In this document: positions 954 to 8,178 of the stretch, in pieces
Layout: the number at the start of each line of letters is the position of its first letter
Position numbering within the stretch: the first letter of the stretch is position 1
NCBI GenBank assembly: GCA_047602405.1
Contig: JASGHJ010000001.1
Span: forward strand, 1,181,228-1,245,227
Reading direction: 5' to 3'
Length of the DNA: 64,000 nt
DNA from: Anaeromyxobacteraceae bacterium
GTDB lineage: Bacteria > Myxococcota > Myxococcia > Myxococcales > Anaeromyxobacteraceae
Notes under the pieces: generated by a model
Databases searched by the model: none
What the model saw: the letters and a program-made list of their open reading frames with translations, nothing else
What the model was told of the DNA's origin: nothing
Program-made: the position numbers and the translations under genes

Positions 954-1705
954 CGCGGCCCCGCGTCCTCGTCGTCGCCGGCCTCGACCCCACCGGCGGC
1001 GCCGGGCTCGTCGCGGACCTCGAGGCCCTCTCCGCCGTCGGGGCGACCGGCTGGGCCGTCGCCTCCGCGCTCACCGCGCAGGGCCCCGGCGCGCTCCGGC
1101 CCGGCCGCGCGCGCGGCATCCGGCCGACCACGCCCGACTTCCTCGAGGACCAGATCGACGCGCTCCTCGGCGGCGCCGAGCGCCCCGCCGCCGTGAAGAC
1201 CGGCATGCTCGGCACCGCCGCGCTCGTCGCCGCCCTCGCCGACCGCCTGCGCGCGCGCCCCTTCACCCGCGTGCCGCTCGTCGTGGATCCGGTCCTGCTC
1301 GCGACCTCCGGGCTGCCGCTCCTCGAGCGCGGCTCGGCCTCCTTCGCCGAGGTCCTCGCGCCGCTCCTCGCGCGCGCCCGCGTCGCGACGCCGAACCTGC
1401 CCGAGCTCGCGCTCCTCACCGGCCTCGACGTCTCGACCGAGGCCGCCGCCGTCCGCGCCGCGCGGCTGCTCCCGTCGAGGGCCGTCGTCGTGAAGGGCGG
1501 CCACGCCGAGGGCGAGCCCGCGGATCTGCTCGTCGAGGGCCGGAGGGTCAGCCGCCTCACCGGCCGCCGCAGGCCCGGCACGGCCCGCGGCACCGGCTGC
1601 CGGTTTGCGTCCGCGCTCGCCGGCCTGCTCGCGCGCGGCGAGCCGCTCGAGGTCGCCGCGCGCGGCGCGAAGAGGGTCGTGGAGCGGTACCTGGACGGTC
1701 GCTAA
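950..1705 (+). CDS. thiD: Hydroxymethylpyrimidine/phosphomethylpyrimidine kinase
   Basis: GTG at 950 overlaps upstream TGA; AGLDPTGGAG, VKTGML, DPV, TPNLPE, KGGH, GTGC motifs. Confidence 0.85.
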   Translation: MTRPRVLVVAGLDPTGGAGLVADLEALSAVGATGWAVASALTAQGPGALRPGRARGIRPTTPDFLEDQIDALLGGAERPAAVKTGMLGTAALVAALADRLRARPFTRVPLVVDPVLLATSGLPLLERGSASFAEVLAPLLARARVATPNLPELALLTGLDVSTEAAAVRAARLLPSRAVVVKGGHAEGEPADLLVEGRRVSRLTGRRRPGTARGTGCRFASALAGLLARGEPLEVAARGAKRVVERYLDGR

Positions 1706-2115
1706 GACGCCGTCGTCCCCGTCGCGACCTTCTTCCCCGCCTTCGTCCAGCCGTCGATGCCGGCCGGCATGATGAAGACCTTCGTGTACCCCGCCTTGAC
1801 GGCCGCACGGGCCGCCTGGTGGCAGGCGTGTCAACGCTCGTTCTTGCAGTAGAAGACGAGCCGCGTCGCCTTGTCGGCGGGGAGCTTCGAGGTCGGGTCG
1901 AGCTCGCTCCAGATCGCGCCGGGCACGTGCCCCTTCGCGTAGACCTCGGGGCCGTTCACGTCGAAGATCCTGGCGTCGGGCTTGCCGACGAGCGCCTCGA
2001 CCTCGTCCACCGAGAGGCTTCCGAACGGGTCGGACTCGGCCCGCGCGGCGCCGGCCACCGCGAGGAGGCCGGCGAGCGACAGCGTGAGGGTGATGCGTTG
2101 CATGAGGAGGTTCAT
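1702..2115 (-). CDS. Exported rhodanese-like protein with in-frame TGA (candidate selenocysteine at 1833-1831)
   Basis: Signal peptide; DVN..EVYAKGHVPGA; VFYCKNER-TGA-HACHQAARAAVKAGYTKVFIMPAGIDGWTKAG continues in frame to TAG at 1704-1702 and completes the rhodanese fold. Confidence 0.8.
1798..1816 (-). promoter_or_regulatory. Candidate bacterial SECIS hairpin
   Basis: GGCGGCC-CGUGC-GGCCGUC stem-loop starting 14 nt after the UGA; loop begins 21 nt downstream and has G in second position. Confidence 0.55.
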
Positions 2116-4297: not shown

Positions 4298-4416
4298 GGG
4301 CTCACCTCACAGGGGATGAGCCTCTCTAAGCCGCTCGCGCCGCGAGGGCCGAGCCCGTGGCCCTCCCGACCCCACAGGGGCGGGGGCGTCGCGACCGTGA
4401 GCCGCGGCCCTCCGCG

Positions 4417-7400
4417 TCACGGCCCCAGCCGGTACCGCACCGTGAGCTCCACGTAGTCGGTGGCCACCTCGCCCATGCCCGTCGCGCGGCCGCTCACGGC
4501 CGCGGGCACGAGCGCGAGGTGGAACAGCCGCTGGTCGCCCACCATGAACCGCTGCCGCTCGGCGACCGGGGTGGACCCGAGCGACGCGTCGCCCGAGAGC
4601 GTCCAGCGCAGGGTCTCGGTGGCGGACGGCGACGCGGTCGCGGAGGACGCGAGCGTGCGCCAGGCGCGGTTGTCCCAGAGCTGCAGCGAGGCGCCCGGCG
4701 TGGTCGTGCCGTTCGGCGCGCCGGTGCCGCCGCCCACCCAGGTCACGTCGAGGTCGAGCACGTCGTGGGCGCGCGTCACCTGCGCAGCGTCGAAGCTGAA
4801 CGAGGCCAGCTGCCCGGGCTTCTCGTCGCCGCCCCCGTGCCACCACCAGCCGGCGAGCGAGCCCGAGGGGCCCGGGTTGATGACGCCGAAGCCGAGCCGC
4901 CGGAGCGTGTCGAAGGCGACGCCGTCGACCTGCGAGGGGACGGGCTGGCCGTCGCCATACAGATTGACCGGGAACACCCGGGTCCACGCGGCGCCGTTCC
5001 ACTCCCAGAAGTCGTGGCAGTTCACGCCGCCGTAGTCGTCGACGCAGTTGATGTTCGACACCACGGCCGCCGGCGCCCCGCCGAACAGGAGCGCGCGGTT
5101 GCGCGCGGTGTCGAAGAACATCCCCGCCCGCGTGCGCGCGGAGGGCTGCGTCGCGCTCGCCGTCCCGCCCGCGGAGAGGCGGGTCCAGGTGGTCCCGTTG
5201 AAGGACCACAGGTCGTTGAAATCGCCGCTGCCGTTGCCCCCGAAGACCAGCACCGGCGCGCCGGTGAGCCCCGTTGCGCGGGTCATGGCCGGGCCGAACC
5301 GCGCCGACGGGCCGGACGCCGGGCACGTCGCGCTCCCGGTCCAGCTGCCCGAGGTGATCTCCCAGACGTCGCAGAACTCGGTGCCGCTGCCGTTCGATTC
5401 CGCCGAAGAGCAGCGCCCCACCCGGTGACGCGCGCGTCGAGGCGGCCATCCCGAGCCAGTAGCGCGCGGCCGGGGCGGTGCCGCCGACGAGGGTCCAGTT
5501 CGAGCCATTCCAGGTGTAGCCCGTGCCGACCGGGCCGCCGGCGCTGGTGCCGCCGAACATCGCGACGACGTTCGACCCCGGGATGTACGTCGCCGCGTAC
5601 TCGGAGCGGGCGCCGGGGATCGTGATCGGCGCGGCCTTCGTCCAGCGCGCGCCGTCCCAGAGCCAGGTGTCGGTGGTCGAGCCCGGGCCGAAGACCACCA
5701 CCCGGTCGCGCGCGGCGTCGTAGGCCGGCGCGACGCCGCTCCCGGCCGGCGGGGCCGCCGTCGGCTCCGGGACCGCCGTCCAGGTGGTGCCGTCCCACTC
5801 CCACTCGGTGTCGCAGAACGGGCCCACGTGGCAGTCGCCCGAGACGCTGAAGGGCACCGCGCCGCCGAAGAGGACCGTCCTCGCCCGCTCCGGATCATAG
5901 TAGACCGACGGGCTCGAGCGCCCCATCGGGCGCGTGGCGGCGCAGGGGTTCGCGGTGCAGCCCTGCGTCCAGGTGGTGCCGTCCCACTCGAAGACGGTGT
6001 CGAGGGTGCCCGCGTTCTGCCCGCCGAAGAGGACGAGGCGCGAGCGGGCCGGGTCGTACGCCGCGCCGGCCTCCTCGCGCTGCGCCGCCGTCGCGCAGGC
6101 GCCCGTGGAGCAGCGCTGCGTCCAGGCCGCGCCGTCCCACGTCCAGGTCGCCGCGTCGTAGGCCGGGACCGCGCCGGTGTTGCCGCCGACGAGCACCACG
6201 ACCTTCCGGGCGGCGTCCCACACGAGCGTGTGGCCGCTGCGGCCGGCGGGCTTCGCGGCCGTCGAGCAGGGCGCCGTCGCGCAGAGCTTCTTCCAGGAGT
6301 GGAAGTCCGTCTCCCAGAGGTCGGCGAGCTTGGTCGTGCCGGACGTGCCGCCGAACAGCAGGAGGCGCTGGCGCGCCTCGTCGTAGGCGATCGCCTGGCC
6401 GGTTCGGGCGGGCGGGTTCCCGTCGCCCTCGGGGTCGGTCATGACGAGCTTGCGCCAGGAGACACCGTCCCACTCCCACAGGTCGGTGCCGTCCGAGAGC
6501 ACCGAGGCGCCTCGGCCGCCCGCGAAGACGAGCGGCAGGTCGGACCCGAGCACCGGGTTGCCGTCGCCCTCCGGATCGGCGGGCACGGGCTTCACCCACG
6601 AGGAGCCGCGGCACGACTCCCACTGGCTGCAGTAGAAGCCGGAGTCGCAGCCGTCCCAGCCCGCGCCGCTGTACGCCACGCGGCAGCCGCGCACCGGGTC
6701 GTGGATCATCCCGGTGCCGCCGCGCGCGCTGAGGGTCTCGAGCTTCCGGGCCGGGATCCAGTACGGCGCGCCGCGCACCGACGCGCCGGCGCCGTCCTTG
6801 CGCGACACCTGGGCCGGCGTCGCGAGCGGCTTCCCGCCGAACTGCCAGAGCGTCGGGGTCCAGGCCTCGCGCCCCTCGAACGCGTGCGGGTTCGGGAAGA
6901 CGCGGCCCGGGACCTTGCCCTGGAGCGTCGCGGTCCAGGCGACGTCGCGCACGAGCGCGGCCTGCTCGCCGTTCGCGGCGCTCGCGTCGGCGTCGCTCAC
7001 GTTGCCGGCGGCGTCCACCGCGGCGACGTAGAGGTCCGGCGCGTCCCCCATGAAGAGTGGAAGGGCGCCGGGTCGCCGACGTCGCCGCCGAAGCTGCCGT
7101 CCGCGGCCGCGGTGGTCCGGCCGATTCCGCGGCCGACGAGCGCGCCCTGCGCGGAGACCACGAGCGGCGCCGAGTAGGCGATGACCGTCGCGTTCGCGGG
7201 GACCGAGCCCGCCGCACCCTTCAGGAAGAACGCCTGCGCGCCGCCGGTCGCCTCGCTGCCCCACGGCACGCGGTGGAACAGGACCGCGTTCGCGGTGCCG
7301 ACCGCGGGCGTGGCGGGCGTCTTCGTCGAGATCGCGACCGTGCCGAGCGACGCGTCGGCGAGGTTGCCGGCGAGGTCGGTGAGGTGCACCGAGAGCGGGG

Positions 7401-8178
7401 CGGCCCCGTCGGGCAGGCCCGCGGCGAGCGTCGCCTCGTAGACGAAGGAGAGGCCGTTGCCGGAGACCTGCGCGAAGGTCACGGCGGCGCCGCCCGAGCC
7501 GAGCGTGACGACCGGCGCGCCCGCGCCGCTCGCCACCACGAACTCGGTCGTGGCGAAGCCGATCCGCACGCCGGTGCCGACGGTGGCGGCGGTCACGTCG
7601 CGCACCGGGCTCGTCGCGGGCGGGGTGAGCGTGACGGAGACGACCGGCTTGTTCGTGGCGTCCTCCAGGATCCCGGGCGGCGTGAAGTCGAAGACCACCG
7701 CGTTGTTGGTGCTCGCCGGGGCGAGGTTGCCGGTCACGTCGGAGAGCGTCGCCACGAAGTCGGCCACGCCCTCGGGGTCGGTCGCCGGCCTCGGGACGTA
7801 GCTCGCCTCGTAGGCGTGGGTGGCGGCGTCCTTCTCGGCGATCGCGAGGGCGAGCGTCTCGCCCGACGCGCCGAAGACGAGCGTCGCGGCCGAGTCGCCG
7901 CCGAGCGCCTCGGTGGTCGTGAAGGCCACCGTGACCTGCGCGGTCGTCGCGCCCACCCGGCCCGGCGTGACGACCGGCGAGCCCACCAGCCCGGGCGCGG
8001 TGACGTCGCCGCCCGCGCGGAAGCAGCGGCCCTGGTTCTGGCGGCACACGTAGCCGTCGGGACAGTCGGCGTCGGACGCGCACGACACCCGCGCGCCGTC
8101 GGGGAGCTTCAGGTCGGCGCTGCAGGCGGCGAGGAGGCCGGCCGCGAGCGCGGCGGCGAGCAGGGCGTTGCGGTGCAT
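4417..8178 (-). CDS. Large kelch-repeat lipoprotein of about 1250 aa, split by two single-base frameshifts (about 7059 and 5398)
   Basis: MHRNALLAAALAAGLLAAC lipobox; Cys-rich segment; Ig-like stalk; many YD.AR.R.VLFGG...DTWEWDG repeats; reading continues across three ORF-track frames. Confidence 0.75.

Follow-up and report, generated by a model that had tools for sequence, protein, structure and literature searches.

Selenoproteins with a rhodanese domain are an already established class, and a 2026 review lists five forms of them (PMC13188914). With selenocysteine (Sec) written as U, the motif is UxxS in form 1 (WP_010941598.1, Geobacter sulfurreducens), UxxG in forms 2 and 4, and CxU in form 3 (NF041203) (PMC13188914; PMC9312934), while form 5 is TsoB, with the motif UxxxxU (NF045694), attributed in the review to Haft & Tolstoy 2025 (PMC13188914). 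Surveys before this review list CxU and UxU rhodanese variants. Sec and exported rhodaneses also meet in Geobacter sulfurreducens, where a Sec enzyme, MccSep/ExtKL, occurs with the rhodanese-like lipoprotein ExtH (PMC13510729; PMC5877670; PMC6148476), and a 2006 selenoproteome list for Anaeromyxobacter dehalogenans contains 11 selenoproteins and no rhodanese (PMC1794560). Here we describe a gene on the minus strand of a 64,000-nucleotide stretch of DNA (the window) from an Anaeromyxobacteraceae bacterium (GenBank assembly GCA_047602405.1, contig JASGHJ010000001.1, positions 1,181,228 to 1,245,227), which, judged from sequence comparison, very probably encodes a genuine exported Sec-containing rhodanese. 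The protein adds an uncommon Sec position to the class: the catalytic Cys is kept as C90, and the Sec is the sixth and last residue of the active-site loop (+5), where Arg, Ser or Thr is usual.

Compared with TsoB, the window protein has a similar rhodanese loop with two chalcogen residues five positions apart (U-x4-U there, C-x4-U here), and positions 103-159 of NF045694 align to its residues 77-133 with an E-value of 2.2e-10. However, it scores 39.2 bits, in the rhodanese part only, against a cut-off of 805, and thus falls outside NF045694. TsoB (for example WP_332113227.1) is a rhodanese fused to a DsbD-like membrane protein, whereas the window protein has 137 residues and lacks a membrane domain, and it carries a single Sec at the second position only, the first loop position being Cys. 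The fusion of TsoB to a DsbD-like importer fits a loop whose Se-S or Se-Se bond needs cytoplasmic reducing power. A search for TsoB in 61 related genomes returned ordinary DsbD homologues and partial rhodanese matches, none over the cut-off. The window protein resembles the catalogued forms 1-4 in its PF00581 domain, its small size, and a Sec in or beside the active-site loop, but it scores below the cut-off of NF041203 (34.8 bits against 115) and reads C-x4-U instead of the C-x-U of form 3, which occurs there as LYCAU. In forms 2 and 4 the Sec replaces the catalytic Cys (UxxG), whereas here Cys90 is kept and the Sec at +5 is followed by H-A-C. The family motif U-x-A-[S/C] reads as UxxS, as in form 1, which we compared by its motif description only, and the window family may or may not be identical to form 1; if it is not, it would be a sixth form that the catalogue lacks. 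No Geobacter sequence appeared among the best 80 GTDB loci or the organism-named database matches.

The in-frame UGA and its downstream hairpin

The open reading frame (ORF) of the gene stops at a TGA codon, and the same frame is then open for another 42 codons up to a TAG (Table 1). With the TGA read as U, the translation has 137 residues, MNLLMQRITLTLSLAGLLAVAGAARA followed by ESDP...LVFYCKNER-U-HACHQAARAAVKAGYTKVFIMPAGIDGWTKAGKKVATGTTAS, and the local motif is LVFY-C90-KNER-U95-HA-C98-H99. A preliminary description of this DNA, made from the letters alone, had noticed the continuing frame, placed the TGA in the active-site loop CKNER-U-HAC, and proposed that the part past the TGA completes a rhodanese domain. 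The minus-strand translation bears out the 42-codon continuation, the spacings C90-x4-U95 and U95-x2-C98 are exactly as claimed, and all the coordinates given there were correct on re-examination. The PF00581 match, which is above the gathering threshold of 22.2 bits, spans the TGA, and homologues align out to residues 131-137 of the window protein. The GC content at third codon positions (GC3) barely differs between the two sides of the TGA, at 0.97 upstream and 0.95 downstream in the same frame, against 0.57 and 0.60 at the first and second codon positions, implying that the downstream part still resembles coding sequence of the source genome.

Table 1. Coordinates of the features discussed; positions are those of the window unless a contig of the source genome is named.
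Feature	Position	Strand	Details
Predicted rhodanese selenoprotein precursor, complete coding sequence (CDS)	1702..2115	-	ATG at 2115, 137 codons and TAG 1704-1702
Predicted signal peptide, residues 1-26	2038..2115	-	MNLLMQRITLTLSLAGLLAVAGAARA; cleavage at ARA, then E; read from the sequence
Rhodanese homology domain, residues 35-125	1741..2013	-	PF00581, 57.2 bits, E 2.5e-15
TGC codon, Cys90, canonical catalytic Cys position of the rhodanese loop	1846..1848	-	Alignment
In-frame TGA, predicted Sec codon 95, loop position +5	1831..1833	-	Sec/Cys alignment column
Cys98-His99 (TGC CAC), first turn of the post-loop helix	1819..1824	-	Family pattern [S/C]-H
SECIS-type hairpin	1798..1816	-	GGCGGCC 1816-1810, loop CGUGC 1809-1805, GGCCGUC 1804-1798
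Formate dehydrogenase alpha (fdhA) genes (L131, L134)	G000:C2:523288-526332, 3601007-3602113; also C2:776312-777280		In-frame UGA-CAC and hairpin

A word-indexed search of 5.8 billion proteins returned 113 relatives of the window protein; the family is large, and database matches at E <= 1e-8 number at least 1262. Every one of the 65 full-length homologues in the databases that bear the catalytic Cys has a Cys in the TGA column. Another 36 database gene calls, 89-117 residues long, stop exactly four residues past the catalytic Cys, which is the TGA codon, and include a RefSeq protein from Anaeromyxobacter paludicola; the truncation by annotation pipelines that the preliminary description expected is therefore seen in these calls. 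When 60 related genomes were searched in six frames, ~25 of the 30 best matches carried exactly one in-frame TGA, including a 92%-identical protein in an independent Anaeromyxobacter metagenome-assembled genome (MAG; L016/L045). We also examined the best 80 loci in GTDB representative genomes, 78 of which contained the motif; codon 95 is TGA in 58 of these species loci and TGC or TGT in the other 20. These loci come from Myxococcota (Anaeromyxobacteraceae, Polyangiaceae, Kofleriaceae, Haliangiales, Archangiaceae) and some Acidobacteriota, and complete Anaeromyxobacter genomes (loci L020, L022, L078) carry the Sec form. In A. dehalogenans the motif reads FYCKNTR-U-SASH. The frame is open for at least 31 codons past the UGA in all 84 Sec forms, with the Trp of a G-I-x-G-W motif at a fixed offset, and the downstream part has a mean ratio of nonsynonymous to synonymous change (pN/pS) of 0.50, with pN < pS in 94% of the pairwise comparisons. 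A maximum-likelihood tree built on 100 domain sequences shows nine switches between Sec and Cys, of which at least five are forced by well-supported branches. Repeated switching of this kind is the usual picture in Sec/Cys families.

Bacterial selenocysteine insertion sequence (SECIS) elements reportedly follow a rule, ascribed to Zhang and Gladyshev in 2005, by which a stem-loop with a G in its apical loop lies shortly 3' of the UGA. Folding of the window sequence confirmed the SECIS-like hairpin that had been proposed, with a stem of 7 bp including one G-U pair, a CGUGC loop and a start 14 nt 3' of the UGA, inside the CDS. Across 22 distinct Sec forms aligned, the 7-bp stem is paired in 96.8% of cells, and three pairs change on both sides; the closing pair turns from G-C to C-G in nine of the forms. 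This covariation was reached by none of 500 shuffles, and every slid register was far worse. All 74 distinct Sec forms have a hairpin of 5-8 bp. In 72 forms its start lies 13-15 nt past the UGA, and in 72 the loop is GGUC, CGUGA, CGUGC, GGC or CGGGC. The 23 Cys-codon forms lack a comparable stem (mean 3.1 bp, against 6.9 bp in the Sec forms; Mann-Whitney p = 3.5e-14), although the GC contents are alike (0.73 in Sec forms, 0.71 in Cys forms). The subfamilies encode the hairpin through differing peptides (AAR-A/E-A, AAVAAE, GAGRA). Thus, the hairpin is conserved, covarying and specific to the UGA forms.

The source genome (6.16 Mb) encodes all of the Sec machinery genes that were looked for. SelA matches at 412 bits, SelB at 292 bits (315 bits with a C-terminal piece) and SelD at 400 bits, and ARAGORN found one tRNA-SeC(tca). 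The selD gene itself contains one in-frame TGA (SHGAG-U-ACKIR; G000:C2:257287-258216). There are also three fdhA genes, each with an in-frame UGA-CAC and a hairpin of 4-7 bp that starts 11-14 nt after the UGA and has a GGUCU or GUC loop. Because these hairpins are similarly placed, the rhodanese hairpin matches what the SelB of the source organism already reads. The Sec/Cys column, the hairpin, the open frame and the sel genes support the candidate selenoprotein of the preliminary description, and together give strong support to a conserved Sec codon at UGA95, served by a SECIS-type hairpin and by a genome that can decode it. If so, Anaeromyxobacter and many other Myxococcota gain a well-supported selenoprotein. 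Because the gene callers of RefSeq and of metagenomes shorten this protein to ~94 residues, selenoproteome counts and rhodanese annotations of these soil bacteria are incomplete.

The Cys-Sec loop and its possible chemistry

By eye, the N-terminus of the window protein reads as a signal peptide, with a hydrophobic core between a basic n-region and an AxA site. In 165 of 174 full-length homologues, too, the N-terminus has a signal peptide or lipobox, suggesting that export is a family trait, and 30 of 30 translated relatives begin alike. The precursor would be exported and cleaved after Ala26, leaving a periplasmic single-domain rhodanese of ~111 residues. An AlphaFold2 model built from 46 sequences has a mean pLDDT (predicted local distance difference test) of 89, rising to ~98 across the domain and falling to ~55 in the signal peptide (residues 1-20). 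The best Foldseek matches of the model are the single-domain rhodaneses BH2092, YgaP, GlpE and TSTD1 and the periplasmic polysulfide carrier Sud. Sud and PspE are periplasmic proteins that carry sulfane sulfur on the loop cysteine. The window protein shares the single-domain rhodanese fold with Sud of Wolinella succinogenes (1qxn) and the PspE/GlpE/YgaP-type proteins (Foldseek E 1e-4 to 2e-7), but these have one cysteine and no Sec, with Arg, Ser or Thr at +5, whereas the window family has Sec or Cys there, followed by [S/C]-H.

In the model, a strand (residues 85-89) ends at C90, the loop covers residues 90-96, and a helix follows (97-107). Profile alignments to solved PDB rhodaneses put C90 at the catalytic Cys and U95 at the +5 loop residue, which is the Arg of CxxGxR-type loops. 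The side chain at +5 in rhodaneses caps the cradle around the cysteine sulfur, and therefore a Sec at this position would be well placed to react with C90 or its persulfide. C90 and [C/U]95 are invariant in the family alignment (A2). Among 174 Cys-form homologues, 125 read C-x4-C-xx-SH and 41 read C-x4-C-xx-CH, and His99 is kept in 166. Because residue 98 is mostly Ser while the other two positions do not vary, the alignment indicates that the conserved, essential pair is C90/U95 and not U95/C98.

Two other assignments of this loop were tried and rejected. Phosphatases and arsenate reductases of the Cdc25/Acr2 type have a loop of seven residues, HC(X)5R, in which the Arg at +6 does not vary; the +6 residue is His in the window protein and H, M, S, T, G or R across the family, and the Cdc25/Acr2-type assignment was dropped. 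We also noticed that U-H-A-C-H (1819-1833) is formally a CXXCH haem motif, with Sec for the first Cys, in an exported protein. Haem attachment is unlikely because 125 of the 174 Cys-form homologues read C-x-x-S-H and the second Cys is not conserved, and we regard the likeness to CXXCH as incidental.

We propose the following scheme, in which the chemical steps are drawn from the position of the two residues. UGA95 would be decoded as Sec by SelB and Sec-tRNA(Sec), recruited via the hairpin, and the N-terminal signal peptide would direct export of the 137-residue precursor. With thiosulfate, polysulfide or selenium species as donors, C90 would be charged with sulfane sulfur or selenium and become a persulfide or perselenide. 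This adduct would be attacked by the selenolate of U95, with the atom passed on or sulfide released, and a C90-S-Se-U95 selenenylsulfide would be left, which could be reduced by C98 or by an external DsbD-dependent periplasmic thiol reductant; a DsbD homologue is present in the source genome. The protein would work as a fast sulfur/selenium relay or reductase, not as a plain transferase. We put forward this specific reductase or relay chemistry tentatively, by analogy, as a possibility and not as the expected outcome. Somewhat more doubtful is the wider suggestion that the family is a distinct type of periplasmic selenoenzyme, a free-standing counterpart of TsoB in which a persulfide-forming Cys and a resolving Sec share one loop (C-x4-U, then [S/C]-H) and form an intramolecular selenenylsulfide, acting as a DsbD-fed reductase of thiosulfate, polysulfide or persulfides or in selenium trafficking, and being the prevailing form of the protein in Myxococcota. 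To our knowledge, Myxococcota are not usually regarded as sulfur respirers.

A Sec that stands beside the catalytic Cys instead of replacing it would provide a natural Cys/Sec pair for studying selenium-accelerated persulfide or disulfide chemistry on a rhodanese scaffold, and the window protein could be used as a simple, soluble stand-in for TsoB and its U-x4-U loop. The finding would gain greater weight if the Cys-Sec loop does represent a new periplasmic reductase chemistry.

Alternative explanations

Codon 95 could be a true stop, as TGA is a normal stop codon in the source genome and public gene callers and RefSeq annotate precisely such a shortened product in relatives (P0002, P0086). 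The product would then be a fragment of 94 residues, comprising the signal peptide and two thirds of the domain, and the 42 codons that follow would be a decaying pseudogene remnant. The presence of TGA as codon 95 in 58 of the 78 species loci, the open downstream frame of all 84 Sec forms with its purifying selection and fixed Trp, the in-frame GC3 of 0.95 past the TGA, and a hairpin that is specific to UGA forms make this highly improbable; judging from the model, such a fragment would also miss the last strand and helices of the fold. The TGA is one base from the Cys codon of the homologues, as would be expected if a TGC had been miscalled in one genome by a sequencing or assembly error, but the chance of this is practically negligible given the same TGA in the independent 92%-identical MAG and in dozens of independently assembled species, always accompanied by the hairpin. 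Readthrough of the UGA without Sec, for example by near-cognate Trp or Cys, would yield the full-length protein without selenium, and such an event can be favoured where a stable hairpin follows UGA-C, a leaky context. We consider it very unlikely because the genome has complete Sec machinery, the hairpin is placed like the SECIS elements of the fdhA genes and likewise has Gs in its loop, and the codon alternates solely with Cys codons, as is seen for Sec/Cys pairs. In addition, nothing suggests a reassignment of UGA, and ORFs of the genome end normally on TGA.

A different question is which residue partners the Sec. The protein could be a real selenoprotein whose redox pair is U95-x2-C98, that is, a thioredoxin-like UxxC periplasmic thiol-disulfide oxidoreductase in which C90 is accessory and no sulfur is transferred. 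The window protein does read U-H-A-C, the position at the start of a helix resembles that of CXXC redox motifs, and there is a sub-threshold match to the rhodanese-like CXXCW family associated with pyrroloquinoline quinone (TIGR03865). However, residue 98 is Ser in 125 of 174 Cys forms and in most Anaeromyxobacter Sec forms, while C90 and [C/U]95 are invariant, and we judge such an oxidoreductase unlikely. As for TIGR03865 itself, the window protein scores 42.1 bits against a cut-off of 128, over the C-terminal third only, and its motif is U-H-A-C-H and not CXXCW; we therefore did not assign it to this family.

Some of our results count against the interpretation as a selenoprotein with a Cys-Sec relay. 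Taken alone, the window hairpin is not beyond chance (z = -1.44; 16 of 200 dinucleotide shuffles fold equally well), and since a single-sequence fold is not significant in such GC-rich DNA, the significance of the hairpin comes from the comparative data only. Searched against Rfam at E <= 10, the region 1600-2000 matched no SECIS family and gave just a chance snoRNA match. A predicted lower helix, which would join columns 14-19 to 45-50, is 50.8% paired and lacks conservation, implying that the element consists of the upper hairpin only. The gene also has no conserved partner, as no neighbour occurs in more than 12 of the 78 loci when their 6-kb flanks are clustered, so that the proposed chemistry rests on motif position and analogy.

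Neighbouring genes and related families

Convergent with the rhodanese gene, on the opposite strand, are thiE, a gene for a C26 glutamine amidotransferase, and thiD. The stop codon of the rhodanese gene (-, TAG 1704-1702) overlaps that of thiD (+, ends 1705) at 1702-1705, so that neither an intergenic space nor a terminator separates the two genes, which confirms the convergence with the thi operon reported in the preliminary description. The signal peptide was taken there to speak against a cytoplasmic ThiI-like role, and we agree: the thi genes are on the other strand, they recur as neighbours in no relatives in the clustering of the 78 loci, and nothing found there links the gene to thiamine biosynthesis. 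A simple promoter and terminator scan of 1500-2400 found nothing. Upstream, on the strand of the rhodanese gene, come first a gene for a lipoprotein that combines a Vgb-lyase-like beta-propeller with a TIG domain, next one for a Kelch-repeat protein, and dnaB. Kelch-like W-x-W-D/N-G-x-x-W repeats occur in each of two long minus-strand ORFs, 4417-5898 and 4307-8083, which lie in different frames; a scan of 4417-5898 gave weak Kelch matches, and together the ORFs could be two adjacent repeat genes or a single frameshifted one. The neighbours that do recur across the 78 loci encode an OPT transporter, a GNAT protein, a Ser/Thr kinase, a metallophosphoesterase and DnaB.

A different arrangement was found in Acidobacteriota. 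Six Cys forms (FYCAERRC-x-ASH; L087, L093, L098, L108, L110, L113) lie ~350 nt downstream of a gene for a multihaem cytochrome c of 711 residues (L087:3526-5658) on the same strand, and a seventh member of this clade, L106, was not recovered in the cytochrome cluster. The cytochrome gave weak matches to DmsE-type decahaem, ExtKL and UshA-like selenoprotein models, and with the Cys-form rhodanese it may constitute a pair of sulfur-compound reductase and carrier. This is reminiscent of MccSep/ExtKL and ExtH, with which the family shares a setting of periplasmic or outer-surface sulfur and selenium chemistry and, in these Acidobacteriota, a position directly after a multihaem cytochrome c gene. 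ExtH, however, has a mass of 49 kDa and no reported Sec, the Sec there being in the cytochrome, and the window gene is without a cytochrome neighbour.

We also noticed a second, more distant family of exported rhodaneses in the same genus, which has an in-frame TGA at +5 (FYCRG-x-G-U-[TS]-L-S; L042, L043 and L044 in genomes G033, G013 and G008) and its own downstream hairpin with a GGUC or CGUGC loop. The window genome seems to be without this family, as its six-frame search gave just two weak extra rhodanese matches. Among the other selenoprotein genes of the source genome, selD has a hairpin (UCCGC-CCU-GCGGA) 10 nt after its UGA that is unlike those of the fdhA and rhodanese genes, and the second and third fdhA genes show as two adjacent matches, suggesting that gene callers probably split them.

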